Counted from the stretch's first letter, positions 6,487 to 22,299 are shown. The stretch is 64,000 nucleotides of DNA from Candidatus Latescibacterota bacterium (GCA_965248265.1 CBDFJF010000001.1:576001-640000); one strand, 5' to 3'. A program made the numbers and translations. Notes: a model not told the origin generated them from the sequence alone.

Positions 6487-6744
<258 letters not shown>

Positions 6745-7697: not shown

Positions 7698-8033
7698 TTA
7701 TGACGCTTGATTGCTCTGGTCAACCCGAGCAGGATCGATCGGCTGTCGCCTCTCGCGCTCGTTGCGGCGCACGACCGCTACGATCTCGACGATCATAGCC
7801 AGGATGCAGGTCGTCCCCAGGCCGGCGACGAAATAGCCCGGATGGATTGGCGTCACCAGGAGCAGGATGGCGGAGGCGGCCGCCATCAGCACCAGCCGGA
7901 GCGCCATGCCTCCCAGAAACACCTTGACGAAAAGTTGCGGCCGGCTGTTCCAGGTCCACCGGATACTCAACCAAGCTATGGCCCCGTTGACGAGCGCCAG
8001 CCCGATACCACAGGCCAACCCTGCCCATATCAT
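7698..8033 (-). CDS. AtpI-like membrane protein
   Basis: Hydrophobic protein with FLGGMALRLVL between atpZ and atpB. Start set at ATG 8033 (ATGA overlap). Confidence 0.8.
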   Translation of the reverse strand: MIWAGLACGIGLALVNGAIAWLSIRWTWNSRPQLFVKVFLGGMALRLVLMAAASAILLLVTPIHPGYFVAGLGTTCILAMIVEIVAVVRRNERERRQPIDPARVDQSNQAS

Positions 8034-8320
8034 TCTGTTTCCTCTCCTTTGGCTTGAGGGTCCTGGTTCGTCGCAGGCCCATCGCCGTCCTCGCTGTCTG
8101 GACGGGTCAGCATCCGGTAAAGATGGTAGAAGGCCGCCGTCGCCCCAAAGAGCATGCCGGCGATCAACAGTAAGGGAGATGTAGATAGCTTGTCGTCCAG
8201 CCACCATCCTCCGATGGTCGCGATGATGATGGTAACGGCAAACTGCAATCCCGCTCCCAGCAACAGGCCGGCCTGGGCCATGCCTGCCTGTTTCTTTGTC
8301 CGCTTGTCATCAGCGGTCAT
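8030..8320 (-). CDS. AtpZ/AtpI family protein
   Basis: Two TM helices with the GWWLDDKLSTSP motif; first gene of the atp cluster. Confidence 0.88.
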   Translation of the reverse strand: MTADDKRTKKQAGMAQAGLLLGAGLQFAVTIIIATIGGWWLDDKLSTSPLLLIAGMLFGATAAFYHLYRMLTRPDSEDGDGPATNQDPQAKGEETE

Positions 8321-8339: not shown

Positions 8340-9752
8340 TCACCAACCGATCAAGCCGGCCTGGCGAGCGGCACTTACCAATGGTTCTGACCACACACCA
8401 CCTCCTACCGAAAACAAGAGCATCAATACCAGGGCGGCGGCGAGTGGGGGGTCGACATGGACGGCCACCGACTCGCCAGCACCGGGAGGCGATAGTACTC
8501 GGACGATCAACCGCGCATACACGTAAGCCATCAGCAGACTGTTGATCAATATGCCTAGGGCGAGCCCGCCAAAGCCGGCATCCAACACCGAACTCAATAC
8601 CCAGTAGCGGGCAGTGAATCCCATCGTCGGCGGCACCCCGACCAGCGCCAGTAGCAGGACCAGCAGCGTCCCTGCCAGCAGTGGGTGTCTACGTGCCAGG
8701 CCCAGACAGTCGTCGATCTCCAGCTCCGTTTCCCGCTGACGGCAAAGCGCCAGCAGCACGGCGCAGCAACCACATACCGCCATGCCGTAAAAGGACAGAT
8801 AGAACACAACCCCGCCACCACCGCGACTGCCCATCGCGCAGAGCCCGGCCAGGGCGTAGCCGATATGAGCGAGTGAGGCGTAGCCCAGCAGGCGCTTTAG
8901 CCGGCGCTGATTCATCGCCAGCAGATTGCCCACCGTCATCGTCAACACGGCAGCAACCCAGGTCAAGGCGACCGCATACTCCTCGACCAGGTCGAAGCCG
9001 ACGGCGCACAGGCGCATCGCCACGGCAACGGCCGAAGCCGTGCCAGCGGAGGCCAGCAGCGCCGATACCGGTGCGGGCGCGCCATGAAAAACGTCGGCAA
9101 ACCACATGTGTAAAGGGACGACGCCGATGCGGGCGCCGACAGCAACCGCGAGCAGGGCCATTCCCGCCAGCGTCAACCGGCTCACGGTGACGTCCGTACC
9201 GTGATACGCGGCGACGAGTTCCGCCAGGTCGGTCGTACCGGTCGCCCCGTACACGAGGACAAGCCCGAGAAGGAAGAACGCACTGGCGACGGCTCCCGTC
9301 ATCGCCAATCGGAGACCGGCCTCCACGGCGATCCGGCTCGACTTCCCGCAGATGATGAGAGCCTGTAGGGACAGGACAGCCAGCTCGAGACTGACAAACA
9401 GCAGCAACAGGTCATTTGCGCGCACCATCACCATCATCCCCAGCACCGAACACAACAGCAGAGGATAAAACGCCAAGCCCGGGGAATCTGTGTCTGCGCC
9501 GCGGTGGCGAGAGAGAGACATGAGGATGGTCAAGCAGGCAAAGCTCAGGATCAGGACGGTGCAGTAGGAGTAAAATTCGGCGGCGAAGCTCTGTCTGAGC
9601 GCAACGGCGAGAATGGCGAGACTACCGAAAAGACTGGTATAGCCCATGCTTGCCGTCACCCTGGAGCCCAGCGACGTAAAGAAGGCTTCGAGCAGGACCA
9701 CGGCGACGATCAGAGCTGCCAGCAGTAGCTCCGGAGTTGAGAAGAAATCCAT
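8340..9752 (-). CDS. nuoN: NADH-quinone oxidoreductase subunit N-like (divergent)
   Basis: NDLLLLFVSLEL, VPLHMWFADVFHGAPAP, KRLLGYASLAHIGY. Start at ATG 9752 (TAATG overlap). Confidence 0.9.
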   Translation of the reverse strand: MDFFSTPELLLAALIVAVVLLEAFFTSLGSRVTASMGYTSLFGSLAILAVALRQSFAAEFYSYCTVLILSFACLTILMSLSRHRGADTDSPGLAFYPLLLCSVLGMMVMVRANDLLLLFVSLELAVLSLQALIICGKSSRIAVEAGLRLAMTGAVASAFFLLGLVLVYGATGTTDLAELVAAYHGTDVTVSRLTLAGMALLAVAVGARIGVVPLHMWFADVFHGAPAPVSALLASAGTASAVAVAMRLCAVGFDLVEEYAVALTWVAAVLTMTVGNLLAMNQRRLKRLLGYASLAHIGYALAGLCAMGSRGGGGVVFYLSFYGMAVCGCCAVLLALCRQRETELEIDDCLGLARRHPLLAGTLLVLLLALVGVPPTMGFTARYWVLSSVLDAGFGGLALGILINSLLMAYVYARLIVRVLSPPGAGESVAVHVDPPLAAALVLMLLFSVGGGVWSEPLVSAARQAGLIGW

Positions 9753-11362
9753 TAAGGATTCTCCTCGATATTGACTGGATGCTGAGTGCTGTCCGTAGTC
9801 GCCGGTGCCAGCGGAGGCGCCGACTCGTCGTTTCCAACTCTGATGACGGAATACCCGGTCGTCGGCAGCCAACCGGTGATGTGGTCGACGGCCGGTGCCG
9901 TAACCTGCACTAGTGGCGCAGGGTGGAGGCCCAGAAACAGAACCAGTCCCAGGATGGCTACCGCCATCCCGGTGAGCGCGCCCCTGGAGCCGCCGGCTCC
10001 AGTCGAGTCGGCCCCAGTTGTGGCGGACAGCAGGGTGTAGGCAGCGACTGACAACCCCAGGAGCGTTGCTACAGTGTGGCCTGGAAACGCCGCGAAGCCG
10101 GCGACCATGCACAGGATAGCTCCGCTGAACGGGGCCGATGCTGGAAAGCCGAGGAAGGCGACGACAGCACTCCACCACAGCAGCGCTTGCCATCGCCCGA
10201 TCCGCTCGCCGCCCGCGGCCAGAGAAACTGAGAGGGCAAGCGCAACCAACAGCGCCCGCACGAGACCGTGACTGAGAGCATACAGGAAACTGCCCTGGAT
10301 ACCCTCACCCGTGAGCGTCCACAGGCCCAGCAAAATGACTCCGTTGAAGCCCAGGCACAGGTAAGCCAGCCGGCGACGCAAGGAAGAGCGCTGCCCGAGA
10401 GCAAGAGCCCCACCGTACAGAGCAACCCAGGCGGCCAGTGCACCTCCCCAGTGAGCACCGATCTGCTCGACGGGTTCGGGACACAGTGGCATGGCAAACC
10501 GCAGTATCACGTAAGTGGCTATCAGGGGCCAGCCGCCAACGACCACGACCGCGACCAGCGGATTTTTCGTGCGTAGCGCCAATAGATCCACCAACCAACC
10601 ATGAAACGGCGCGATCGGCAGCTGGATGACCAGGTACAATCCGAAGGCGGCGGCGATCCACATCTGCGCCTCAGCGGGCAGCGCAAGCGTCAGCAACTGC
10701 TCTGGATCGAGTTGGGGGCTGCCTGTCTTTTGCTGAGCCGTCGAGCGCACCGACAGGGCTGCAGCCAACAGCGCCAGTGTGGCCGCGTAGTTAAAGAGGA
10801 GAAACCTCAATGCGACCCGGCGGCGCTCACTGCTGCGCACGCCACCCCCTGCCTCGTCATCCTTGGCCATACAAAGAGCGAAAAACAGAGCGAAAACGGC
10901 GGCCTGAGAGAACAGCGTCAGCAGCAGGAGGTTGGCCGCGACGAAGACGCCCTGGAGCGATGCCATAGCCACCAGCAATCCCATGCTTGCCCCCCTACCG
11001 CCGACGGAATTTGCTGACATGGCGATGAGAAACAGGAGTGGGATGACAACCAGCGCGAAGACATTGAGATGGTCGATCCCCAGCTGCAGGTCGAGGCCCA
11101 GTGAAGGCGCCCATGGTACGCTGCCGGCGACCCCCACGGCCTGCGATCCTGCTGATCCGAACAATTCAACGGTTGAGTGGAACTGTTCCGGTAGATCCAG
11201 GAAGTTGCCAACAGCCAGTAACCCTAACGCCAATTCCAGAAAGGTCACGGCCAGCAGGACCAGACGGCGGCCCTGCCCCGACGCGGGTGGCAGGAGAGCG
11301 ACAACGGCTGCGCCGATCAGAGGCACGACCACGAAACTCGACAGGATCAGGGCGGGCATCAT
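9752..11362 (-). CDS. nuoM: NADH-quinone oxidoreductase subunit M-like (highly divergent)
   Basis: PWAPSLGLDLQLGID, PIAPFHGWL, RRRLAY and ALSHGL; lies between nuoL and nuoN. Start at ATG 11362. Confidence 0.85.
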   Translation of the reverse strand: MMPALILSSFVVVPLIGAAVVALLPPASGQGRRLVLLAVTFLELALGLLAVGNFLDLPEQFHSTVELFGSAGSQAVGVAGSVPWAPSLGLDLQLGIDHLNVFALVVIPLLFLIAMSANSVGGRGASMGLLVAMASLQGVFVAANLLLLTLFSQAAVFALFFALCMAKDDEAGGGVRSSERRRVALRFLLFNYAATLALLAAALSVRSTAQQKTGSPQLDPEQLLTLALPAEAQMWIAAAFGLYLVIQLPIAPFHGWLVDLLALRTKNPLVAVVVVGGWPLIATYVILRFAMPLCPEPVEQIGAHWGGALAAWVALYGGALALGQRSSLRRRLAYLCLGFNGVILLGLWTLTGEGIQGSFLYALSHGLVRALLVALALSVSLAAGGERIGRWQALLWWSAVVAFLGFPASAPFSGAILCMVAGFAAFPGHTVATLLGLSVAAYTLLSATTGADSTGAGGSRGALTGMAVAILGLVLFLGLHPAPLVQVTAPAVDHITGWLPTTGYSVIRVGNDESAPPLAPATTDSTQHPVNIEENP

Positions 11363-13197
11363 CGGCTCGTCAACCACACAACAGCCACAAGAGTGATGGC
11401 AGCGCTCAGCACGGCGGCCGTGACGGCCGAGGAAAAACGGCCGTCGTGCAGGGTTCCGATCAACCAACCGCAGACGCGAACGCCTGCGCCGATCCCGCGC
11501 AGGCACAGCAACTCGACGGCCACATCGACGAACGTCGATACCCGGTCCGCCAACCAACAGACGGACCGCGCAATGGCCGTGTAGAGATCGTCGAACAGCA
11601 ATCCATTTCCTAGCAGATGCCTCAGGAGGTGCGGCGGACGGCCGGTGACACCCCTGGGGCTCGGTCTCAGGCGCCCCACCAGGACCCACGCCCATCCACA
11701 TCCGGCGAGCGTGAGCACGACGCAGGCGATTCCGACCGTGGACTCCACCAGCACCGCCGAGGGCATCGCGCCGACGTCAGCGAAAGCCCGCGGGATTGCA
11801 GCCGCCAGACGGATCGGAGAAGCCTGGTGACTGATTAACATCGCAATGACAGCAAGACCGGACAGACAGGCCATGAAGGCGACAGGAACTGTGGTCGAGC
11901 CCTCGCGGATCACAGTACGGGGATTGACACCCGTGAAAATGCCGAACAGCAGGCGGAAAAGGTGGAGGGAGGTAAGCAGCACGACCAGGCTTCCCAGAAT
12001 CGCGAAGGGAGTGCTCTCTGCCGCAGCTGCCTCCAGGAACGACAGCTGCACCCAGAAACTCGCGAACGGGGGCAACACCAACACGATGGTGGCTACCAGA
12101 GTGAACCGGTACGCCGTCTTCAAGTGGACCCGCAGACCACCAAGTGTGGACAGCTCAAAGGCCGCCGAACTCGCGCGCTCGGCCAGGCCGGTGGTGAGCA
12201 GGAGTACACATTTGACACAGGTATGAATCGACAACTGCAGCAATGCCACGGCCGGCATTCCCATGGACGCGAGGGTCAGGGCGATCGCGCCCTGGCTTGA
12301 GGTGGAATAGGCCAGCGACCGGCGGGGGTCGCGAGCGGCCGCGGCACAAGCCGCCATCAGCGCGGCACCGGCCAATCCAATGCCCGACAAACCTTCCGGA
12401 GACATCAGCTGCCAGGATCGAACCAGCAGGTAGAGACCGAGCGGGACCGCGAAGACGACCTGGATGAAGGTGGCTGCCGGCGTCCCTAACGACGCGCTTC
12501 GCTCCAACCAGGGATGCAACGGCCACATGCCAGTCCGGGCAATACCAGCCACCGCAATCGACAGGCCGATGACGGCAGTTGTCGAACCCCCCAAGACCTC
12601 CACGAAGGCGACGGAACCCAGGTGCAAGAGCATGAACACGAGCGCGCTCAGGAGTCCCAGCGAGGCGAGGCCCTGGAAGACCAAAGTCCGCGCCGCGGCC
12701 GGACCGTCGCCGCGCAAACGGACCAGCAGCCAGGTCGACAACGCGACTCCCTCCCAACCGGCATACAGCATACCGTAATTGTTGGCGATCACCGCCAAGA
12801 GTGCACAGGACACTCCGAAGTGGACGACGGCGTCCTGGCGGCGCTGCTGATGGAGTTCCTCAGTCTCAAATGCCGATTTGCATACATGGACCGCCAGGTT
12901 GGTCGAGGCCACGACGAAGGCTGTGATCGCGGACATTGGATCGATGAGAAAACCGGCCGTTATGACGGTGTCCTGCCCCAGGACGATCCAGGTCATGACA
13001 TCCCAGTTTGCTGTCACCGCTGTACCGCAGCTCAAGACCAGAAGCACCAGCGCACACAGCCAGGTGAGGGCGGCAGTATTGATACCACGCATGCGCAACG
13101 CGCCTGTAGATCGCGCGCCCGCTGTGGCGACGGCTCCTGCCAGTGGCGTGAGCAGAAGACCGTATGCGGCTATTTTCGTTAGCAGAACCAACTGCAT
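11359..13197 (-). CDS. nuoL: NADH-quinone oxidoreductase subunit L-like (divergent)
   Basis: GFLIDPMS, GWEGV, PLHPWL, LAYSTSSQ, IHTCVK and a C-terminal FDDLY lateral-helix region. Confidence 0.88.
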   Translation of the reverse strand: MQLVLLTKIAAYGLLLTPLAGAVATAGARSTGALRMRGINTAALTWLCALVLLVLSCGTAVTANWDVMTWIVLGQDTVITAGFLIDPMSAITAFVVASTNLAVHVCKSAFETEELHQQRRQDAVVHFGVSCALLAVIANNYGMLYAGWEGVALSTWLLVRLRGDGPAAARTLVFQGLASLGLLSALVFMLLHLGSVAFVEVLGGSTTAVIGLSIAVAGIARTGMWPLHPWLERSASLGTPAATFIQVVFAVPLGLYLLVRSWQLMSPEGLSGIGLAGAALMAACAAAARDPRRSLAYSTSSQGAIALTLASMGMPAVALLQLSIHTCVKCVLLLTTGLAERASSAAFELSTLGGLRVHLKTAYRFTLVATIVLVLPPFASFWVQLSFLEAAAAESTPFAILGSLVVLLTSLHLFRLLFGIFTGVNPRTVIREGSTTVPVAFMACLSGLAVIAMLISHQASPIRLAAAIPRAFADVGAMPSAVLVESTVGIACVVLTLAGCGWAWVLVGRLRPSPRGVTGRPPHLLRHLLGNGLLFDDLYTAIARSVCWLADRVSTFVDVAVELLCLRGIGAGVRVCGWLIGTLHDGRFSSAVTAAVLSAAITLVAVVWLTSR

Positions 13198-13509
13198 TTA
13201 GCCCTCGAACTCCGGCGATCGCTTGTCGAGATCGGTGTCACCACCGCGACGGTGGCGCAGGCACAGCAATGACAGCAGGACGACGGCTTGCCCTACACCG
13301 GCGGCCAACGTGATCAGGGCCATCACCTGGCCGGAATCGTCAGCATGAAAGTGTGCGAAGGCTGCGAGGGTGACGACGGCTCCCAACCCCATCAGCTGAA
13401 ACCCCAGGATGACGGCCAGAACGTTGCGCCGCAGGACGATGCCCGTTAGCCCGAGCCCGAACAGGAGCAAACCAAAAAGCGTAGTCACCTGCAGGATCGC
13501 CGCGCTCAT
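13198..13509 (-). CDS. nuoK: NADH-quinone oxidoreductase subunit K-like
   Basis: LFGLGLTGIVLRRN and GQVM motifs; both conserved Glu appear as Gln. Confidence 0.9.
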   Translation of the reverse strand: MSAAILQVTTLFGLLLFGLGLTGIVLRRNVLAVILGFQLMGLGAVVTLAAFAHFHADDSGQVMALITLAAGVGQAVVLLSLLCLRHRRGGDTDLDKRSPEFEG

Positions 13510-14093
13510 GGACCCTCCCCGGTACTGGCAGGATCATCTACCCGATTGGATTCGACAATCGCCAGCGTGGTGGCGAAAAGGACGAAGCCGATGACGATGA
13601 ATGACACCAAGTGTCTCCTCACCAGTAGACCGGTGAGTGACTCGCTATCGGCAACCACGCCATCGGCGACGATGGCGGCAGTGGTCTCCCCTTGGACGGC
13701 GACCGTTGGAGCTATCCCTGGAGTCGCCGCAATGACACCGAGCGCGACTACCAGGATTGCGGCCGCGCACAAGATCAGCCTTCGCCTCTTGGAATCCGAG
13801 GCGGCTCGCGGACCTTGCCGCGAGTGTCCCACGAGCGGAGTGCCCGATTCTTCTTGATTGACAACCATGTGACCTACGAGATAGACGGCGGCGATGACAC
13901 CACCCTGCATCAGGACTAGCCCGATGGCAACCAGTGGCGCATTCGCGAAGATCCCCACGATGCCGGCTGCGGCCAGGACCACCACGCCGAGAGCGAGAGC
14001 AGACCGAGTCACCGATCGACTGGTGGCGACGACGACGGCGGCGGCCACGGCGAGTGCTGCCAGTAACACGTACAGGACCAGACCGGAGATCAC
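13506..14093 (-). CDS. nuoJ: NADH-quinone oxidoreductase subunit J-like
   Basis: Multi-TM protein between nuoH and nuoK. GTG start at 14093 overlaps the nuoH stop (GTGA). Confidence 0.8.
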   Translation of the reverse strand: MISGLVLYVLLAALAVAAAVVVATSRSVTRSALALGVVVLAAAGIVGIFANAPLVAIGLVLMQGGVIAAVYLVGHMVVNQEESGTPLVGHSRQGPRAASDSKRRRLILCAAAILVVALGVIAATPGIAPTVAVQGETTAAIVADGVVADSESLTGLLVRRHLVSFIVIGFVLFATTLAIVESNRVDDPASTGEGP

Positions 14094-15115
14094 GCGTTTG
14101 TCATCATTTTCAGGAGCCGCGAACCGACCGCTACCATCAGCAGATTGGCAAAAGCCAGCGGCAGCAGGTATTTCCAGCCGACGGTGGCTGCGCGCTCGAG
14201 TACCAGCGACGGCAGGCTCGAACGGACCCAGAGAAACAGCAGGACGACAGCGGCGGTTTTGATGACGGTTGCGCTGGCCTGCACATGCGGCACTTCCCCG
14301 TTGCCGACGAGTCCGGGAATGTGCCACCCCCCCAGGTACAGGGTGACGAGGAAGGCGCTGGCGGCTATCAGATGCACCCGCTCCGCCACCAGCATCAAGG
14401 CCAAGTGGCGGCCGCTGTAGAGGCTGCCGAGGCGGCCGCCTCTGGTCGGGTCTCGCTGGGTGAGTGGACGCCAGGGGATAATCTGCAGGAGGGCGGCGAA
14501 GCAGACGACGAAACCCAACGGTTGAACCATCAGGTTCCAGGCGAGGATGACGTGTCCGTCGATCGCTGTCTGGGCGGCGATGATCTGGTCAAAACGAGCT
14601 GTTCCGCCGGCCGTTATGACTCCGAAAACGGCGACCCCGAGCGCCAGGTAACAGCTCAGCTGGCGCGCCACCAGACGCAGTCCTCCGAAATCACGAAAGC
14701 CTCCTATTTGAGCGCGGGTTCCGGCGATCAGACCAACCTGGAGAGCGATGAAGCCCAGGGCCATGACGTAGACGACCCCCAGGCTGGTGTGCCCTCCCCA
14801 CGCCGCCAGCGCTGTCCAGAGCCCACCACCATCACTCTGGCAAAACGGAACCACGGCGAGGGCGGTGAACGAAATGGCCAACAACAGAGGGGCGGCCCAC
14901 TTGCCGCCAGCTCCAGCCGCGGCCCGTGGCGATCTCTTTGACGCCAGCTTGATCAGATCGGCTACGGGGCGCAATCCGAAACCCGCCCGCTGGCGCCTGC
15001 CCGGCGCGGTCCGGTACTCAGCGAGCATGATCGCCATGACTCCGATCGCCGTACATAACAGCAGCGCGCCGTTGGAGCCCAGCGCGTTGATGAGTGGAAG
15101 GTCCTGGAAGGCCAA
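14090..15115 (-). CDS. nuoH: NADH-quinone oxidoreductase subunit H-like (divergent)
   Basis: PVADLIKL, GGLR, YSG, LYLGGW, WVRSSLP, GWKYLLPL. The TTG start at 15115 is approximate. Confidence 0.87.
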   Translation of the reverse strand: MAFQDLPLINALGSNGALLLCTAIGVMAIMLAEYRTAPGRRQRAGFGLRPVADLIKLASKRSPRAAAGAGGKWAAPLLLAISFTALAVVPFCQSDGGGLWTALAAWGGHTSLGVVYVMALGFIALQVGLIAGTRAQIGGFRDFGGLRLVARQLSCYLALGVAVFGVITAGGTARFDQIIAAQTAIDGHVILAWNLMVQPLGFVVCFAALLQIIPWRPLTQRDPTRGGRLGSLYSGRHLALMLVAERVHLIAASAFLVTLYLGGWHIPGLVGNGEVPHVQASATVIKTAAVVLLFLWVRSSLPSLVLERAATVGWKYLLPLAFANLLMVAVGSRLLKMMTNA

Positions 15116-15116
15116 T

Positions 15117-16796
15117 TCAGTCGGTATCCGCCGGCCGCTGTCTCGACAGCCAGTCTCGTTTGTTGTGATCGTCAACGGCCAGAAAACCACGTCGTTGCAG
15201 AGCGGTGGACCATCCACCGCCGTAGGCCTGTGCGATACCTGCCGCACCGAGCCCCGCACCCGGGTCCCCCTGATTCTGATCGAGGACAGTCTCGGCTTCC
15301 GCTATGACGGAGTTCGGCGCCGCGAATCGAACCGCCACTCGTTTGAGAATCTCGATATCGTCCAGGCACCCGGGAGCGGGTCCAACGGCCTTTTGCAACC
15401 GCTGAAGGTGCCCGTCGGCGTTGGTCATGGTACCGGCTTTTTCTGGGAAACTGCATCCTGGCAGCACGACCCGCGCCAGGGCGGCCAGTTCGTCCTGCAG
15501 GATATCCAGGACGACCAGATTGTCGGCAACAGCACCCAGGGCGCTGAGCTCGATGTCGTCCGGCCGAACGCCCGGTCCCCCACCCACAACGAAGGCCGCA
15601 CCGATCAATCCCTCCTGCAGTGCTTCCACCATCTGATCCATCCCCAGCAAACTCTGGCCCAGCTCTGCCGCCACCCCTTTGATGCCATGCGAATTCGCCG
15701 CCTTGTCGCCTCGAATCGTGAATCCACTCGGGTAGATCGTGTCGCCTTCCGTAGCGAGGGACTGCCGCAAGGATATCAATTCGGTGTCCCAGCCTTGAGC
15801 AAGGCGAATCAACAGACGGGCTTCCTCGTTCGTCATCTGGCCGCCGAGTATGACTCCGATCTGCTGTCCCTGAGAGCGGCAGGCGGTAAAAGCGAGATGA
15901 ATGGCCTCGCACGCGTCCTCCCAAGATGCGACAACGTCTGCAACGCCATCAGCTGACTGGATCAGGGGATGCGTCAACCGCTCCGAACTGTGGACGTAGT
16001 GCCATCCGTGACGTCCATCATCGCACATCCAGTACTCGTTGACATCCATGTTCACGCGGGGCTTGAGTCTCTTCACCTGATCGCCGGCAACATCGATGCG
16101 GATGTTGCATCCGGAGGAACAGCCGGTGCAGATCGAGTCGACACCGCGCAATCTCCAGGCCGGCTGCAGCTGGAAACGCTTGTCGATCAGAGCACCGGCC
16201 GGACACAGATCCACGGTGTTGCCGGACAGCCGATTGTCCATCTTTGACCCGGGAAAGGTAGCGACTTCGAGGCGGTCACCTCGATCGAACATCGACAGCT
16301 CTTCCGTACCGGTGACCTCCGCGCAGAAACGGACGCAACGGGTACAATGGATGCATTTCCCCGGGTCTATGGCAACGTGATCTCCCAGATCCCGAATTTC
16401 ACTCGCGCCCTTTTCGGGAAGCACGTATGGACCGTCGCCGCCGTAGGCGAAGCTGAATTCCTGTAACTCGCACTCTCCCGAATTGTCGCACGATGGACAT
16501 TCCAATGGGTGCCGCACCAGCTGGAACTCAAGCGCTGTAGCTCGCGCCTGCCTTACGGCCTCCGATTCCGTGCGCACCACCATGCTGTCCTGTACCTGCG
16601 CATCGCACGCCGTCGTCAAACGCCAGCCGTCGTCGTCTCGCACCTCTATCGCACATAGCCGACACAGTGCCGGAGTAGACAGGGCCGGATGAAAACACAG
16701 ATGGGGGACGAAAATTTCAGCCTCGAGAGCGCCCATGAGCAGATTGGCCCCGTCCTCGATCTCCAGCGCTCTGCCGTCCCATGTTATTCGGGCCAT
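15117..16796 (-). CDS. nuoG: NADH-quinone oxidoreductase subunit G-like (short form)
   Basis: Motifs for N1b (LCFHP...CRLC...TAC), N5 (HPLECPSCDNSGEC), N4 (CIHCTRC...CP) and N7 (CTGCSSGC...C). Confidence 0.93.
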   Translation of the reverse strand: MARITWDGRALEIEDGANLLMGALEAEIFVPHLCFHPALSTPALCRLCAIEVRDDDGWRLTTACDAQVQDSMVVRTESEAVRQARATALEFQLVRHPLECPSCDNSGECELQEFSFAYGGDGPYVLPEKGASEIRDLGDHVAIDPGKCIHCTRCVRFCAEVTGTEELSMFDRGDRLEVATFPGSKMDNRLSGNTVDLCPAGALIDKRFQLQPAWRLRGVDSICTGCSSGCNIRIDVAGDQVKRLKPRVNMDVNEYWMCDDGRHGWHYVHSSERLTHPLIQSADGVADVVASWEDACEAIHLAFTACRSQGQQIGVILGGQMTNEEARLLIRLAQGWDTELISLRQSLATEGDTIYPSGFTIRGDKAANSHGIKGVAAELGQSLLGMDQMVEALQEGLIGAAFVVGGGPGVRPDDIELSALGAVADNLVVLDILQDELAALARVVLPGCSFPEKAGTMTNADGHLQRLQKAVGPAPGCLDDIEILKRVAVRFAAPNSVIAEAETVLDQNQGDPGAGLGAAGIAQAYGGGWSTALQRRGFLAVDDHNKRDWLSRQRPADTD

Positions 16797-16797
16797 G

Positions 16798-18156
16798 TTA
16801 GTAACGCACGCTTACGCTATCCGGCACCCTGAACCCGGGGTCTTTCAGCTCCTGCATTGGGCAGGCTCCTGCCGTAGCGTGCGCCTCGAATTCGGCTCTG
16901 AACGAATGGAAGAAATCCTGCACGGTCCAAGCGAAGGCGCTACCGAATCCACACAGCGCCGTGGTCTGCTCAGGCCGGAGCCGGGGGGCGATCTGACGCG
17001 CCACGGATTCGATCAGCTTCACCTCGTCGGCGTCACCCCCCTTACCCTCCTCCAGTCGTTGCAGCAACTGGAGGATCCAACTCGAGCCCTCCCTGCACGG
17101 CGCGCACTGCCCGCACGATTCCACCGCATAGAAGCGCATCATCTGGATCGCCGTGTCCACCATGCAGGTGGTATCATCCAGGACGATGACCGCGCCGTTG
17201 CCGAAGGCTCCATCGATCGGTCCTGCGCCGGGTATCGCCCATTGTTGGGGGTCGAGATCGACATCGAGCTGCTGTGGCTGCAGAACCGTCGACAGTGTGC
17301 CACCGACGATGACCGCCTTGAGCGAGCGACCATCGGGTACACCACCGGCGTAGTCGTCTACCAACTCCCTCAGCGTCGCCTCGCCCAAAGCCAGTTCGTA
17401 CAAACCTGGACGACGCACGTGCCCGCTGACACAAAACACGCACGTACCTGGATAGGCATGCGTGCCGATGGTCCTGAACTCGACCGCACCGGCTGACAGA
17501 ATGTCAGGTAGATAGGCCAGGGTGCCGACGTTGTGGACAACGGCCGGCTCGCCAAAGAGGGTGCGTGGGGACGACGCCGGTGCCGGCTCAGGTCGTCCCC
17601 CTTCGAGCCCCTGTAGCAAGGCCGATTCCTCGGCGGCAATATGGGCACCACCCCCTGGATGCACGTAGACATCCAGGTCGAAACCACTGCCGGCAATATC
17701 ACGCCCCAGCCAGTTGGCTTTGTAGGCCTCGTCTATTGCCTGGTTGATGACGGTGGTTGGACGGGCAAGTTCACCTCTCACGCATAGATAGGCGACCCGT
17801 GCGCCAAGAGCTCGGGCGGCGATGAGTATACCTTCGAGAAGGCGATGAGGTACGCGCTCCATGAGCTTGCGGTCACGAAACAGACCCGGATCGGCATCGT
17901 AGGCATTGACACACAGGTAGGGCGGCGGTGCCGACGTCATCGCCGGCTGCGCCGACCGCCGCCACTTATCCGCGACCGGCTCCCAACCGCCGCCACGACC
18001 GCGCAGACCACTGGCGGCGACTTCCTCCAGCAGCTGCTGTTGGGTCATGGCCAACGCCTTGGCCGCTCCCCGATAGCCGCCGTGGGTGAGGTAGGCCTGG
18101 ATGCCCTCGATGTCGGGGATCTCGATATTCTTGAGGAGCAGTCTGTGCTCAGCCAT
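16798..18156 (-). CDS. nuoF: NADH-quinone oxidoreductase subunit F-like (remodelled nucleotide site)
   Basis: SGLRGRGG, PHRLLEG, SGHVRRPGLYE and the N3 motif ESCGQCAPCREG...LCGFG. Confidence 0.93.
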   Translation of the reverse strand: MAEHRLLLKNIEIPDIEGIQAYLTHGGYRGAAKALAMTQQQLLEEVAASGLRGRGGGWEPVADKWRRSAQPAMTSAPPPYLCVNAYDADPGLFRDRKLMERVPHRLLEGILIAARALGARVAYLCVRGELARPTTVINQAIDEAYKANWLGRDIAGSGFDLDVYVHPGGGAHIAAEESALLQGLEGGRPEPAPASSPRTLFGEPAVVHNVGTLAYLPDILSAGAVEFRTIGTHAYPGTCVFCVSGHVRRPGLYELALGEATLRELVDDYAGGVPDGRSLKAVIVGGTLSTVLQPQQLDVDLDPQQWAIPGAGPIDGAFGNGAVIVLDDTTCMVDTAIQMMRFYAVESCGQCAPCREGSSWILQLLQRLEEGKGGDADEVKLIESVARQIAPRLRPEQTTALCGFGSAFAWTVQDFFHSFRAEFEAHATAGACPMQELKDPGFRVPDSVSVRY

Positions 18157-18160
18157 GGCC

Positions 18161-18667
18161 TCAGTCCTCGATACGCTCTACGGTACGCTCTAGTAATTGA
18201 GTCAGTTTCTCGAGACTCAGGCTTTCATGCAGCTCGTCGTCTACGAGCATCACCGGAGCCGTGCTGCAGGATGCCAGACACGGAACACGTTCGAGGGTGA
18301 AATGGCCGTCCAGGGCCGTGTCCCCCGGCTCAATGCCGAGCGCGACACGCAGTTGGCCCAGAACCGTTTCAGCACCCATCAAGCGGCAGGAGAGGCCATC
18401 GCACACCCGCAGCCGGCTTCTACCAGCCGGCTTGTCAGTCCTCAGCAGGGGATAGAAACTGGCCACGCCGGCAGCTCGAACTGGAGGTATTGCCAACAGG
18501 TCGGCCACGTGGCCGATCACAGACGGTGAGCACCAGCCCCACTCTCGCTGTGCCAGCAGCAGGACCGGAAGAAGCGCACCGCCAGCCTCGGGATAGCGCT
18601 CCCGGATGCGCTGGTACTCGGCCTCCGTGTCCGGACCGAAAGCCAATTTGTCGATGGTCTGCTCCAT
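18161..18667 (-). CDS. nuoE: NADH-quinone oxidoreductase subunit E-like
   Basis: GVASFY and the 2Fe-2S motif CDGLSC...CLASC. Start at ATG 18667 (TGATG overlap). Confidence 0.93.
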   Translation of the reverse strand: MEQTIDKLAFGPDTEAEYQRIRERYPEAGGALLPVLLLAQREWGWCSPSVIGHVADLLAIPPVRAAGVASFYPLLRTDKPAGRSRLRVCDGLSCRLMGAETVLGQLRVALGIEPGDTALDGHFTLERVPCLASCSTAPVMLVDDELHESLSLEKLTQLLERTVERIED

Positions 18668-20319
18668 CACCGGTCCATCTCCGCAGGCACCACATTGAGA
18701 CTGCACAGAGCCTGGCGCGCTTGTGCCATCGGCAGATCGGCGACCAGGCCTCCGGCGACCTGAAAGTTCAACAACGAAGGCGAGCGCAGGTGGAGCCGGT
18801 AGGGCCGGTCGGTGCCGTCTGCGCACAAGAACACGCCGAGCTCGCCATTCGGACTCTCGGTCGCTTGGTAACACTGGGCGCCCGCCGGCAGGCGAAGGCC
18901 ATGCCCCTCCGTCCACAACTGCATGTGGCGGATCATTACCTCCACGCGTTCGCGCACTTGCTCGGACGTGCCCGGAAAAACGCGGGCGTCCTCGGTGCGC
19001 CAGGCACCGGTCGGCATCGACCGCAAAGCCCGTTCGATGAGGCCGGTACTCTCCACCATCTCCTCCATGCGCACCCGGCAGCGATCCAGCGCGTCGCCGT
19101 TCGAGCCAACGGGCACCTCGAAATCCAGCTCGCCATACGCCAGGTACGGCGTCGTCTTGCGCAGATCCGACTCCGTGCCGCAGGCACGCTGGACCGGACC
19201 ACTCAAACCCCATTCGGCGGCTTCATGGGCGCTCAGCGCTGCCACTCCGTCGACCAGGTCACGCCACAGGCGATTGCCCATGAGCTGCTTGTGCAACCGT
19301 GCCACCGCAACTCGTATCGACCGCGACAAGGCCAGCGCGCAGTTCATGAAATCATCCGGAAAATCGGCTGCCTGTCCCCCGATAGCCAGTAATCCGGTAC
19401 CGGTACCCACACCTCTCAACCGACCCATCGTCTCCAGTACTGCAGCACGCAGCTGCATGGCTTGTCGCCAAACTCTGTCGGCGCCGGCCGTCTCGGTTTG
19501 GATCGACAGCCAAGCCAGGTGTCCCGCGAGGCGGGAAAGCTCGGCGATGACGACACGCTGAAAGTTGCCTCTCGGTGGCACCTCGATTCCCAGCATCGCC
19601 TCGACCGCCAGTGCGAGGGTCAAGCTGGCGGCGTGAGGGGACTGGTCGTTCAGGCGTTCGCACACAACCATGTTCTGTATACAAGTCAACGACTCGGAGA
19701 GCTTCTCGATGCCACTGTGGGCAAATCCAGGCACCGGAGCAGCACGCACCACCCGGCCGGCCACCACCTCGAGGCGCATGCGCAGTGTCGGTATCGGCGC
19801 GACCAGAGCCGCGGTGTCCGGGCCAGTTGGCACAGGATTACCGGTTTCGCCCTCACCGAGCAAGGGATAGCGCTTGCGCAGCGGGTGAACGGAGGAGGGG
19901 GAGTGCAGGATCAGGGCTCGGGTCGTGGATCTGCCGGTAAAGCGGACCCCGAACATCTCCGCCACCTCACGCTCCTGCCAGTCTGCGCCCGGAAACAGAT
20001 CGGTGACGCTGGCCAGCGTGGTTTCTTCTGGATCGAAATCAGCACTCAATTGCAAACACGCAAAGGGTGTCTGGACTGACCGCAACTGGTAGACTATCCG
20101 CAGAGGCGCCGCCTCACCGGCGAGAGCGGACAGATCGACTGCAGTCATATCTGCGAGGGTGTAGCTTCCGTCCGTCCTCAGCGAGGTGAGCACCTCGTGC
20201 ACGGCATCCGCTTCCAGTACCAGCAATGTGCGTCCAGCAACTTCACGGATCTCGGCCGTCGGAAAGTTGACATGCAAGGTGGACAGCACGGTGTCGGCCT
20301 CGGCGAGTGTTTCAGCCAT
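18667..20319 (-). CDS. nuoCD: Fused NuoC/NuoD-like protein (quinone site degenerate)
   Basis: NuoC part WQEREVAEMFG...HPLRK. NuoD part GFAHSGIEK, GLSGPVQRA, ESPNGELG, RSPS and C-terminal EMDR. Start at ATG 20319. Confidence 0.9.
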   Translation of the reverse strand: MAETLAEADTVLSTLHVNFPTAEIREVAGRTLLVLEADAVHEVLTSLRTDGSYTLADMTAVDLSALAGEAAPLRIVYQLRSVQTPFACLQLSADFDPEETTLASVTDLFPGADWQEREVAEMFGVRFTGRSTTRALILHSPSSVHPLRKRYPLLGEGETGNPVPTGPDTAALVAPIPTLRMRLEVVAGRVVRAAPVPGFAHSGIEKLSESLTCIQNMVVCERLNDQSPHAASLTLALAVEAMLGIEVPPRGNFQRVVIAELSRLAGHLAWLSIQTETAGADRVWRQAMQLRAAVLETMGRLRGVGTGTGLLAIGGQAADFPDDFMNCALALSRSIRVAVARLHKQLMGNRLWRDLVDGVAALSAHEAAEWGLSGPVQRACGTESDLRKTTPYLAYGELDFEVPVGSNGDALDRCRVRMEEMVESTGLIERALRSMPTGAWRTEDARVFPGTSEQVRERVEVMIRHMQLWTEGHGLRLPAGAQCYQATESPNGELGVFLCADGTDRPYRLHLRSPSLLNFQVAGGLVADLPMAQARQALCSLNVVPAEMDR

Positions 20320-20713
20320 CGGAATCCGTGACGGGCGAGCGCTCTTCCCAGTCGAAGGCCCGTCGACGGGCAGCGTACACGAAGGCGCAGAGCAGGACGA
20401 TGATGAAAACGGCAACGACACCGAGCACGGCCGCATCACCATCCAGCAACTGATTGAACCCGAGAGCCCATGGCAACAGCAGGACGAGCCCTGCTTGAAA
20501 AACCGCTGCGATGAGCGCGATTCGGTAGAAGGGCAGGATTTGAGCCGGTGTGGACTGCGTTTGAGAGTCCCGCGCGGACGCCGTGTCATCGGCTCTATCG
20601 CGGCTGAGCAAGCGTGCCCCGAACAAGAAAGCCGCCGCAAACAGAAGGATTGCGACGGCTGAGATCACGGCAGCTGGAATTTCGATTGCGACCTCGTAGG
20701 CGGGAAGAGCCAC
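20312..20713 (-). CDS. nuoA: NADH-quinone oxidoreductase subunit A-like
   Basis: Three TM helices, FYRIAL...LLPWA and a C-terminal RRAFDW; first gene of the nuo cluster. Confidence 0.82.
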   Translation of the reverse strand: MALPAYEVAIEIPAAVISAVAILLFAAAFLFGARLLSRDRADDTASARDSQTQSTPAQILPFYRIALIAAVFQAGLVLLLPWALGFNQLLDGDAAVLGVVAVFIIVLLCAFVYAARRRAFDWEERSPVTDSDG

Positions 20714-20789: not shown

Positions 20790-21038
20790 TCATTGGGCGG
20801 CGCCCACAGCCGCCGGCACGGCCTCAGGCGTGAATACCGCGTCCTTGGCGGCGTCCTCCGAGGCGCAGGAGTCGCCGGGAGACGCGCCGCAGTCGCACAT
20901 CGGCATGCCCAACTCGTCACGCATGTTTCCCAGACCACCGCAGGTGCCCTTCAAGGGTCTGTCACGAAAAATCACGCCCACAGCCATGCCGGCCATGACG
21001 ATGCCGATGATGATGAAGGCTGGAATGAGGAGTTCCAT
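20790..21038 (-). CDS. nqrM: Na+-NQR maturation protein NqrM (DUF539)
   Basis: TM helix, then GMAVGVIF...PLKGTCGGL and further Cys; lies downstream of nqrF. Confidence 0.88.
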   Translation of the reverse strand: MELLIPAFIIIGIVMAGMAVGVIFRDRPLKGTCGGLGNMRDELGMPMCDCGASPGDSCASEDAAKDAVFTPEAVPAAVGAAQ

Positions 21039-21060: not shown

Positions 21061-22299
21061 CTAACCGAAGTCGTCGAAGCGGATCATCTCTTCTTCCACT
21101 CCGAGCTCGTCCAGCATGTTCATCACTGCTTGCAGCATCATCGGTGGACCGCACAGATAGTACTCGATGTCTTCCGGAGCCGCGTGGGAGCTCAGATAGT
21201 GGTCGAGGACGACCTGGTGAATGAAACCCTGGTACCCGGTCCAGTTGTCTTCTGGCAGAGGCTCCGACATGGCCACATGCCACGAGAAGTTCGGGAACTC
21301 CTCGGCGATAGCCTCGAAGTGGTCCTCGTAGAACAATTCCTTGGAGGATCGAGCCCCGTACCAATACGACACCTTGCGACCGGTCCTCAAGGTGTGGAAC
21401 AGGTGAAAAATGTGCGACCGCAACGGTGCCATGCCAGCGCCGCCACCGATGTAGACCATCTCGCGCTCGGTTTCCTGGATGAAGAACTCCCCGTAGGGAC
21501 CGGAAATGGTAGCCTTGTCTCCAGCCTTCAGATTGAACACGAAGGAAGACACGATGCCGGGGTTGACCTTCATCCAGCCGCCGATGCTCGGATCGAATGG
21601 CGGCGTGGCGATACGGATGTTGAGCATGACGATGTTGCCCTCGGCCGGGTGATTCGCCATCGAGTAGGCACGAAAAACCGTATCGGCGTTCACCGTTCGC
21701 AGATCCCACACCTTGAAACGGTCCCAGTCGCCGTGAAAACGCTCGTCGACTTCGAAATCCCTGAAGGAGCACTGGAAGGACGGTACTTCTATTTGGATGA
21801 AGCCGCCGGATTCGAAATTCAGGTTCTCGCCTTCTGGTAATTTGAGGACGAGTTCCTTGATAAAGGTTGCGACGTTCTTATTGGAGATGACCTCGCATTC
21901 CCAGCGTTTGACCGAGAACACCTCGGGCGGCACTTCGATCTTCAAGCTCTCCTTGACGGCGACCTGACATGAGAGCCGATCCCCTTCGCGGGCTTCACGC
22001 TTGGTGATCTGTTCCAGCTCCGTGGCCAGAATCTCACCGCCCCCCTCGTGTATCTTCACGACACACTGGCCACAGGTACCGCCCCCACCGCATGCCGATG
22101 AAACGAAAAGCTGGTTATCTGCCAGCACGTTGAGCAGCTTGCCGCCCGCTGGCGTGGTCAGGGTGCGTTCATCGTTGATGACGATCTCGACGTCGCCGCT
22201 GGCAACCAGCTTGGAACGGGCTGCCAGGATGACGCCCACCAGCGCCAGCACGACCATCGTGAACATGCCGACACCGGCGGTTATTTCCACGGCCATCAT
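21061..22299 (-). CDS. nqrF: Na+-translocating NADH:quinone reductase subunit F
   Basis: [42 protein letters not shown] and a C-terminal DDFG. Confidence 0.98.

Follow-up and report, generated by a model that had tools for sequence, protein, structure and literature searches.

A nuo gene cluster with replaced catalytic residues is maintained between the Na+-NQR and ATP synthase operons of a Candidatus Latescibacterota bacterium

A cluster of nuo genes for respiratory complex I was analyzed in a 64,000-nucleotide stretch of DNA from a Candidatus Latescibacterota bacterium (GCA_965248265.1, CBDFJF010000001.1:576001-640000), which is referred to here as the window. The genome (G000) comprises 7.32 Mb in two contigs, C1 and C2, and the window is C1:576001-640000. 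Eleven abutting open reading frames (ORFs) of the minus strand, nuoA-CD-E-F-G-H-J-K-L-M-N, occupy positions 8340-20713; each matches the expected Pfam family, and there are no internal stops. Canonical energy-converting NADH:quinone oxidoreduction by the encoded complex would be excluded by the loss of the residues for it. By a modest balance of probability, the sequences point to a non-pumping iron-sulfur (Fe-S) assembly on a sealed membrane anchor, for which redox relay, buffering, sensing or structural organization are candidate roles. This reading is favored because the NuoE/F/G-Fe-S module is the best conserved part of the complex, while the quinone and coupling elements are the most relaxed.

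The nucleotide-binding subunit NuoF (452 amino acids; 16798..18156, minus strand; PF01512, E 7.6e-29, and PF10589, E 5.5e-24) was aligned to solved NuoF chains and to its relatives, and the residues were mapped from these sequence alignments. The canonical flavin mononucleotide (FMN)/NADH motifs, GRGGAGFPTG, NADESEPG, GAGAYICGEET, and NNVET, were compared with the solved chains. In the window, GRGGAGFPTG is replaced by GRGGGWEPVA, which departs from the canonical FMN/NADH motif; NADESEPG reads NAYDADPG, GAGAYICGEET reads GGGAHIAAEES, and NNVET reads HNVGT (as VHNVGT). The cysteines of cluster N3 are intact, and the protein carries a clade-specific C-terminal tail that ends in ...DSVSVRY. A total of 41 related genomes was searched and 40 NuoF relatives were fetched. 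Thirty-five of the latter, each a distinct 90%-identity NuoF cluster, belong to what is designated Group II, and the tail ...(V/I)(S/N/H)(V/I/L/M)R(F/Y) is found in every one of them. All 35 have the loop Trp, and none retains the NADESEPG Asp, the Cys within YICGEE, or the first Asn of NNVET. At NCBI, the only name of the member P0019 is "F iron-sulfur binding region domain-containing protein". An internal control is provided by a fused NuoE-NuoF-like protein of the same genome, in which GRGGAGFPTG, NADEGEPG, GAGAYVCGEE, and VNNVET are retained. This protein of 567 amino acids (locus L017; G000:C2:~2985262-2988100) is encoded beside a NuoG/FdhA-like Fe-S protein and is probably a component of a soluble NAD-linked dehydrogenase.

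The Fe-S ligands of the peripheral arm are preserved. The four cysteines of the 2Fe-2S site are kept in NuoE (168 amino acids; 18161..18667, minus strand; PF01257, E 5.5e-40), and all of the Cys/His ligand columns are kept in NuoG, which is of the short form (559 amino acids; 15117..16796, minus strand; Pfam Fer2_4, NADH-G_4Fe-4S_3, Fer4_Nqo3, Molybdop_Fe4S4, and Molybdopterin). When the NuoI and NuoB proteins encoded elsewhere in the genome are included, the Cys/His ligands of N1a, N3, N1b, N4, N5, N6a/b, and N2 are all present.

The quinone site was examined in the fused NuoCD protein (550 amino acids; 18667..20319, minus strand; PF00329, E 1.3e-24, and PF00346, E 2.1e-65), the gene of which overlaps the end of nuoA by 8 bases. 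His-38, Tyr-87, and Asp-139 (Thermus numbering) are the NuoD quinone-site residues given in PMC5938582. The equivalents of all three are gone from the window: GPQHPxxHG is replaced by GPDTAALVAPIP (His-38), R(L/M)(D/N)Y by RLND (Tyr-87), and LD(I/L)GA by TETAGA (Asp-139). These altered motifs are conserved within the subclade of the window (P0121-P0127). At the former position of the Tyr motif, "LN(D/E)Q" is found in several Group II subclades, and the Tyr itself is still present in G008 and P0131. The loop that precedes the NuoD beta-sheet is poorly conserved among the Group II subclades.

The membrane subunits that adjoin the quinone site are altered as well. In NuoH (341 amino acids; 14090..15115, minus strand; TTG start at 15115, alternative ATG at 15037), 9 of the 24 charged residues that are invariant in a reference set of seven canonical sequences are kept, and the loop between transmembrane (TM) segments 5 and 6 has been rewritten with loss of its acidic residues. 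The match of this protein to PF00146 has an E value of 8.2e-35, compared with 5e-115 for the canonical paralog. Both membrane glutamates of NuoK (103 amino acids; 13198..13509, minus strand; PF00420, E 5.5e-17) are replaced by glutamine (Q38 and Q74), and three of the five invariant charged residues are kept. The remodelled NuoH loop and Q38 of NuoK are conserved between the window and the metagenome contig L084. The divergent NuoA (133 amino acids; 20312..20713, minus strand; GTG start at 20713, alternative start at 20668) matches PF00507 with an E value of 2.2e-9, versus 2e-29 for the canonical paralog of the same genome; the canonical "FDIEVVF" reads "FQAGLVL", such that Asp and Glu are exchanged for Gln and Gly. 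In NuoJ (195 amino acids, GTG start; 13506..14093, minus strand; PF00499, E 1.7e-8), the Tyr of "VYAGA" is a Gln and the Glu of "PFE" is lost.

An alternative that bears on both of these sites is a residual redox enzyme, non-pumping or weakly coupled, in which electrons from NADH or a different donor would pass through NuoE/F/G and reduce quinone, or some other acceptor, at a NuoB/NuoD site that has been remodelled. In its favor, no ligand of the Fe-S chain is missing, and the constraint on NuoE, NuoF, and NuoG matches that in canonical enzymes. The GEE pair and GAGAYIAGEETAL are also kept by many Group II NuoF proteins, and because of the latter some binding of flavin or nucleotide may persist. 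The recurrence of the acidic "LN(D/E)Q" at the former Tyr position, with the Tyr kept in G008 and P0131, can be read in the same direction. The window, however, is without the quinone-site His, Tyr, and Asp and without the acidic residues of the NuoH TM5-6 loop, and the poor conservation of the loop before the NuoD beta-sheet weighs on the same side. The replacement of the NADESEPG Asp and the first NNVET Asn throughout the 35 Group II NuoF proteins, together with the varying Lys of "xKW", also argues against such an enzyme, and it is regarded as quite unlikely.

The three antiporter-like subunits have lost most of their proton-transfer residues. In NuoN (470 amino acids; 8340..9752, minus strand; PF00361, E 1.1e-53), the TM5 Glu is unchanged, and Arg, Thr, and Arg stand in place of the Lys residues of TM7, TM8, and TM12, respectively. 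In NuoM (536 amino acids; 9752..11362, minus strand; PF00361, E 8.6e-14 versus 1e-54 for the canonical paralog), the TM5 Glu is a Gln, the TM7 Lys a Gln, the TM8 Lys an Ile, and the TM12 Glu an Ala. NuoL (612 amino acids; 11359..13197, minus strand; PF00361, E 2.8e-21 versus 5.5e-76 for the canonical paralog) retains the TM5 Glu and has Arg for the TM7 Lys, Gln for the TM8 His, and Gln for the TM12 Lys. Of the proton-transfer Lys/Glu residues in these subunits, those that remain are the Glu of TM5 in NuoL and NuoN and a single Lys of NuoL, the others being Arg, Gln, Ile, Thr, or Ala. The invariant charged residues are kept at 8 of 13 positions in NuoN, 4 of 10 in NuoM, and 9 of 21 in NuoL. The total number of lysines, a count that is independent of the alignment, is two in NuoN, three in NuoM, and four in NuoL.

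The location of the cluster between Na+-NQR (the NADH:quinone oxidoreductase that translocates Na+) and ATP synthase could suggest that the membrane arm acts as an Mrp-like Na+/H+ antiporter, which would connect the sodium gradient of NQR to an H+-coupled ATP synthase. The c subunit of this synthase (73 amino acids; 6487-6708, minus strand) reads ...ALVEGVALL... at the ion-binding Glu. The Na+ motif of c subunits includes Ser/Thr/Tyr. Judged by eye, these residues are absent from the c subunit, and the synthase beside Na+-NQR therefore looks H+-coupled. Na+/H+ antiport by mammalian complex I in its deactive form has also been reported (PMC3464577). The Lys/Glu residues that complex I and Mrp subunits have in common are nevertheless the very ones that are replaced in the window, and the best conserved part of the complex is a full peripheral arm for which antiport has no need. 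The system is not a member of the Mrp-type Na+/H+ antiporters, and conversion of one ion gradient into another is given hardly any credence.

The preliminary description of this DNA had proposed that the residues for NADH, quinone, and protons are altered and that the TM helices and the NuoE/F/G Fe-S ligands are kept. Alignment of NuoF, NuoD, and NuoH/A/J/K/L/M/N bears out the first statement; the intact ligand columns, and TM-like segment counts for the window membrane subunits that resemble those of the canonical paralogs, bear out the second. Of the four altered functional layers that it listed, NuoF, the NuoD site, and the protonatable chain stand. The fourth, the NuoI/NuoB clusters, does not, since both genes are encoded elsewhere, on C2, with all of the cluster cysteines; for this layer the change is a matter of gene position only. 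The "minus B/I" architecture it had inferred is likewise wrong, as the two genes are unlinked and turned up in every cluster-bearing relative searched.

No PF01058 (NuoB) gene and no NuoI gene is present within the nuo cluster. The genome contains two PF01058 genes, both outside the window, one within an 11-subunit operon on C1 and one that stands alone on C2. The stand-alone, or orphan, NuoB (142 amino acids; PF01058, E 8.5e-22) has the cysteines of CC, GSCA, and PGCPP. The start of its gene overlaps the stop of a gene for an Fe-S NTPase of the NUBPL/Mrp/ApbC type (PF10609, E 5e-99), which lies at L002:344-1803, equivalent to G000:C2:~3818214-3819673. NUBPL/Ind1 is an assembly factor of complex I in eukaryotes. 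The orphan NuoI (144 amino acids) has two CxxCxxCxxxCP motifs and is encoded between rny and dxr on C2; its score against TIGR01971 is 75 bits, under the curated cut-off of 113.

Clusters that contain nuoE/F/G and are without nuoI were found in 12 genomes among the 41, that of the window included. An orphan nuoI is present in all 12 (the genome of the window, G004, G005, G008, G013, G017, G019, G021, G026, G028, G030, and G040) and follows rny at all 12 of the fetched loci, with the order rny-nuoI-dxr at the 8 loci of the window's own family. The context NUBPL-like gene-nuoB-prmA-like gene is found at 8 of 8 fetched own-family loci. In 11 own-family genomes without the cluster, no NuoB or NuoI match was found at E<=1e-8. 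The exceptions to this distribution are G011 (84% complete), which has both orphan genes although no cluster was found in it, and G024, which retains only a weak NuoI match. The ligand cysteines are intact in all of the aligned orphan NuoI proteins and in all of the aligned orphan NuoB proteins except that of G013. This pattern, in which the 11 cluster genes and 2 unlinked genes are kept or lost together, fits a complex that would still be assembled and would be useful where it is kept.

The phylogenetic position of the cluster was examined with a quick IQ-TREE maximum-likelihood tree of NuoF, in which the branch that separates Group II from Group I plus the canonical proteins has a Shimodaira-Hasegawa-like approximate likelihood-ratio test (SH-aLRT) value of 100. 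Group II is, on these sequences, one clade. It comprises the window, G004, G005, G008, G013, G017, G019, and G021, together with the metagenome contigs L084, L085, L155, and L158; G004 was placed from a NuoG/NuoH contig fragment only, and the tree rows of G017, G005, and G019 were placed by their NuoF tails. Group II clusters are strongly divergent, were found in 8 of the 41 related genomes, in each case next to Na+-NQR, and have nqr on one side and atp on the other whenever the contig extends to the flanks. The clusters of six fetched relatives and one metagenome contig share the nqr-nuo-atp synteny. The synteny that the preliminary description had suggested looking for in relatives is found, with nuoB and nuoI unlinked instead of absent.

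Group I consists of L007 (from a metagenome-assembled genome labelled Gemmatimonadetes), G026, G028, G030, and G040. Full clusters were read for L007, G028 (L049), G030 (L052), and G040 (L050), and G026 was placed from a NuoG/NuoH fragment and its orphan NuoB and NuoI. The architecture is the same as in the window, with a fused CD, a short NuoG, no nuoI in the cluster, the NuoF-loop Trp, and, in L007, L049, and L052, an atp operon that follows with nuoN adjacent to atpZ; nuoB is in the cluster only in L007. The Group I orphan NuoB proteins score 298-341 bits to the in-cluster NuoB of L007 and 170-174 bits to the 11-subunit type, and because of this difference the Group I orphan NuoB is the translocated ortholog. 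Unlike the window, Group I retains His, Tyr, and Asp at the quinone site, the NuoH loop, the Glu residues of NuoK, and the antiporter Lys/Glu, and is without the NuoF C-terminal tail. The catalytic residues are kept, and the scores of the Group I membrane subunits against the canonical paralogs are 229-365 bits. The NuoF of Group I, canonical in other respects, already has a Trp in place of the second Gly of the FMN-loop GAGF (GRGGAWF...), so that the Trp change predates the disarmament. Between nuoM and nuoN of the L007 cluster lies a gene for a CitMHS_2 transporter (L007:17025-18491; PF16980, E 6e-186). At L074, L075, and L083 (in the Group I genomes G028, G030, and G026, respectively), a second nuoB, with a nuoI-like gene immediately after it, lies ~1.5 kb away from the orphan nuoB, an arrangement that suggests another complex-I-related operon.

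A third type, a canonical 14-subunit cluster with nuoB and nuoI in place, is present in G012 and G023. In both of these clusters NuoE and NuoF are contained in one ORF of 605 amino acids, an apparent NuoEF fusion (G023, L058:7201-9015; G012, L059:10773-12587). All 8 Group II genomes gave an NqrF match, and none was found in the 4 Group I and 2 canonical 14-subunit genomes that were searched. The proposed tie between the divergent complex and Na+-NQR holds in this sample: NQR was found in all eight genomes of the Group II type and in none of the six with a canonical-looking complex I.

Selection was assessed from the ratio of nonsynonymous to synonymous substitution rates (dN/dS), obtained as pairwise Nei-Gojobori counts on local alignments. 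The comparison of the window with L155/L158, at dS 0.15-0.37 and ~90% amino acid identity, gave dN/dS values of 0.13-0.32: 0.146 for nuoCD (L155; 550 codons), 0.173 for nuoE, 0.130 for nuoG (546 codons), 0.292 for nuoH, and 0.316 for nuoJ. Against L084 the nuo genes gave 0.09-0.18, with dS of about 1-1.9 (saturating), and nqrD/E/F gave 0.03-0.06. For G008 versus G021, in a sister genus, the values for the nuo genes are mostly 0.09-0.32, with 0.45 for nuoA and 0.57 for nuoJ, and those for the orphan genes are 0.127 (nuoB) and 0.341 (nuoI). The canonical 14-subunit control from the same family, G023 versus G012, gave 0.08-0.25. By these sequence comparisons, purifying selection on the nuo cluster is similar in strength to that on canonical complex I within this family. 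Expressed as a ratio to the canonical comparison, the identity among Group II members is about 1.0-1.2 for NuoE, NuoF, NuoG, and NuoN and 0.57-0.79 for NuoH, NuoK, NuoL, and NuoD. The earlier view that the cluster is not undergoing random decay is supported by the low dN/dS in the window lineage and in the sister genus. Both these values and the new motifs found throughout the clade agree with what the joint retention or loss of the 13 genes suggests.

The immediate surroundings of the cluster are relevant to whether this constraint could be indirect. The junctions within the cluster, computed with the start codons closest to the preceding stops, range from an 8-base overlap to a 4-base gap. 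Upstream, nqrD, nqrE, nqrF (21061..22299, minus strand; Pfam Fer2, FAD_binding_6, and NAD_binding_1), and an nqrM-like ORF precede nuoA in the Na+-NQR operon; nqrF has orthologs that are 73-80% identical at the equivalent position in relatives. The nqrM-like ORF (82 amino acids; 20790..21038, minus strand; PF04400 NqrM, E 9.9e-5, 22.5 bits versus a cut-off of 22) is the last gene of this operon and is separated from nuoA by 76 bases. It is Cys-rich and has one TM segment. Downstream, 19 bases separate the stop of nuoN from the start of an atpZ-like gene (8030..8320, minus strand; PF09527, E 1.1e-14), which is outside the complex and is the first gene of an F-type ATP synthase operon with the order atpZ, atpI, atpB, c, b, delta, alpha. 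The nuoN-atpZ adjacency is also found in L007, L049, and L051-L057. A scan for promoters and terminators gave nothing above the shuffled expectation and speaks neither for nor against co-transcription. The intact, tightly joined set of 11 nuo genes in canonical order and its position between Na+-NQR and ATP synthase, both reported in the preliminary description, are thus confirmed.

From this arrangement it could be argued that the cluster is a relic in the course of being lost, with NQR having taken over and the genes persisting only by their position between nqr and the essential atp operon. Polar nonsense mutations and toxic misfolded membrane proteins would then provide an indirect selection that keeps the frames open and dN/dS below 1. 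The tight spacing at both ends, with no convincing terminator between, and the strong divergence of NuoH, NuoK, NuoL, and NuoD are in keeping with such a relic, as is a series of observations on relatives. In all 8 of the examined own-family genomes with NQR and without the cluster, the whole cluster is cleanly gone and the nqr operon is directly followed by atpZ-atpI-atpB; at one of these loci, in G009, nqr is followed by atpZ-atpB, and no nqrM or atpI match was found. An nqrM homolog follows nqrF at the other seven. The cluster is absent from G024 and present in its congener G013. Because the whole cluster has been lost repeatedly and cleanly in relatives, it is dispensable in many lineages. 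Relative to G008, the nuoF and nuoCD genes of G021 each carry an uncompensated 1-base deletion (L054 ~11009 and ~13301) that splits the gene into two frames, through either real decay or an assembly error.

These losses and frameshifts weigh against a retained function, and several further points count against the preferred reading or limit it. The H, J, K, and L proteins of G017 and G019 match no Pfam family except for a weak NuoK match (G017) and a weak DUF4149 match; the H, J, K, and L ORFs of G005 and G019, which Pfam does not see, are nevertheless supported by 49-66% identity between these two genomes and by the TM-like segments that they still contain. The orphan NuoB of G013 has CAC in place of CC, and the NuoG of G008 has an Arg at one cluster Cys where G021 has a Cys. 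The GAGAYIAGEETAL retained in many Group II NuoF proteins would leave room for some flavin or nucleotide binding. The residue mapping is by sequence alignment, and the names of the canonical residues are in part those of PMC5938582. The dN/dS method is a simple one, and some pairs are saturated (dS>1).

The relic explanation is considered unlikely. The unlinked nuoB and nuoI are free of any constraint from the operon, yet their Cys ligands are intact and their dN/dS values are 0.13-0.34. Both genes were found in all of the cluster-bearing genomes and in none of the 11 own-family genomes without the cluster. The dN/dS of nuoE, nuoF, nuoG, and nuoCD equals that of canonical complex I, the clade-specific motifs are conserved in 35 of 35 NuoF proteins, and no partially deleted cluster was found among the 8 Group II genomes.

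A second operon, nuoABCDHIJKLMN (locus L006, G000:C1:250001-264000; ~252-261.6 kb), is present in the same genome. The A, H, J, K, L, M, and N subunits of this 11-subunit Nuo/NDH-1-type complex are homologous to those of the window; unlike the window, it encodes B, C, D, and I itself, and every position examined in it has the canonical residue. The operon is without nuoE/F/G, and the only complex-I-type NuoE/F/G genes found in the genome are those of the window cluster. The check for a second canonical nuo operon, suggested in the preliminary description, found this canonical-looking one of 11 subunits, a result counted against that description's interpretation; the second operon was rejected as an explanation of the window cluster. 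A variant of this idea is that the window NuoE/F/G serve as the NADH-oxidizing module of the 11-subunit NuoABCDHIJKLMN, which would supply what the second operon is missing. Such sharing is difficult to reconcile with the degenerate FMN/NADH motifs of NuoF and with the full membrane arm of the cluster's own that is under selection. In addition, the Group II genomes G008 and G021 gave one NuoB match and one NuoI match each, and no 11-subunit operon was found in them with the queries used. Sharing of the module is considered very improbable and was rejected.

The preferred reading, a non-pumping Fe-S assembly, can be set out as a proposed sequence of events. The ancestor would have been an ordinary CD-fused complex I encoded upstream of the atp operon, and its disarmament would have followed the arrival of the Na+-NQR operon directly upstream. 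The window would supply 11 of the 13 subunits, with NuoB and NuoI provided from the conserved unlinked sites, and the 13 proteins may still form an L-shaped particle, with a membrane arm that would act as a sealed anchor and would not pump. Where the TM5 Glu is retained, in NuoN and NuoL, Arg stands in place of the TM7 Lys and would be unable to shuttle protons. The peripheral arm would keep its Fe-S wire together with a NuoF pocket that is remodelled yet constrained. NADH:quinone energy conversion would be left to Na+-NQR, and a new non-pumping role may have developed around the NuoE/F/G-Fe-S module, namely relay, buffering, sensing, or the organization of the co-encoded NQR and ATP synthase. 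A broader proposal, held tentatively and at slightly less than even weight, is that Group II as a whole is a widespread, anciently diverged "pseudo-complex I" that has given up NADH oxidation, quinone reduction, and pumping for a new role tied to NQR and ATP synthase, for example as a redox-sensing or organizing platform.

Complex I (Nuo/Nqo, with a fused NuoCD) is the closest known system. Homologs of all 14 core subunits (13 with the fusion), the canonical gene order, the Pfam families, the Fe-S ligands of NuoE/F/G/I/B, and similar TM-like counts are shared with it, and the best solved-structure matches of the window proteins are NuoF and the 49-kDa subunit. The window system differs from complex I in the unlinked nuoB/nuoI, the remodelled NuoF motifs, the NuoD His/Tyr/Asp, the NuoH loop, the acidic residues of NuoA/J/K, and most of the Lys/Glu of NuoL/M/N. 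In group 4 [NiFe] hydrogenases (Mbh/Ech/Mbx), the large subunit carries NiFe-binding CxxC pairs near its two termini. The window NuoD instead ends in ...VVPAEMDR, like complex I, with no terminal CxxC, and NuoE/F/G are present; it does not belong with these hydrogenases. Complex I is usually either retained in functional form or lost. The loss of catalytic motifs with retention of the fold and of purifying selection is a property that the window system shares with pseudoenzymes. In the accessible portions of that literature, known pseudoenzymes are mostly single proteins, whereas the present case would involve a whole 13-subunit membrane complex.

The literature search, which covered the accessible parts of the sources, returned no description of a degenerate or vestigial complex I, nor of complex I as a pseudoenzyme; supplementary tables may list these genes. 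In PMC4453560, as far as its accessible text goes, genomes that are missing any nuo gene are scored as being without complex I. The accessible parts of PMC9426454 and PMC11651109 report the presence of nuo and nqr in Gemmatimonadota without residue analysis.

A whole clade of bacteria thus keeps 13 subunits and their Fe-S ligands under purifying selection after the loss of residues held to be essential for each catalytic step. Within one class, an evolutionary series is apparent that would lead from canonical complex I through the acquisition of NQR to one of two outcomes, disarmament or clean deletion. The presence of a nuo operon in these bacteria would not, if the particle is made, be equivalent to the presence of complex I activity, which is a caution for genome annotation. 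Such a particle would also constitute a natural complex I with all of its sites knocked out, and it could reveal which functions scaffold, Fe-S chain, and Glu/Arg pairs have by themselves. It would point to a non-bioenergetic role for a respiratory complex. If the proposed reading is true, this would be the first known case of an entire respiratory complex that has been turned into a pseudoenzyme.

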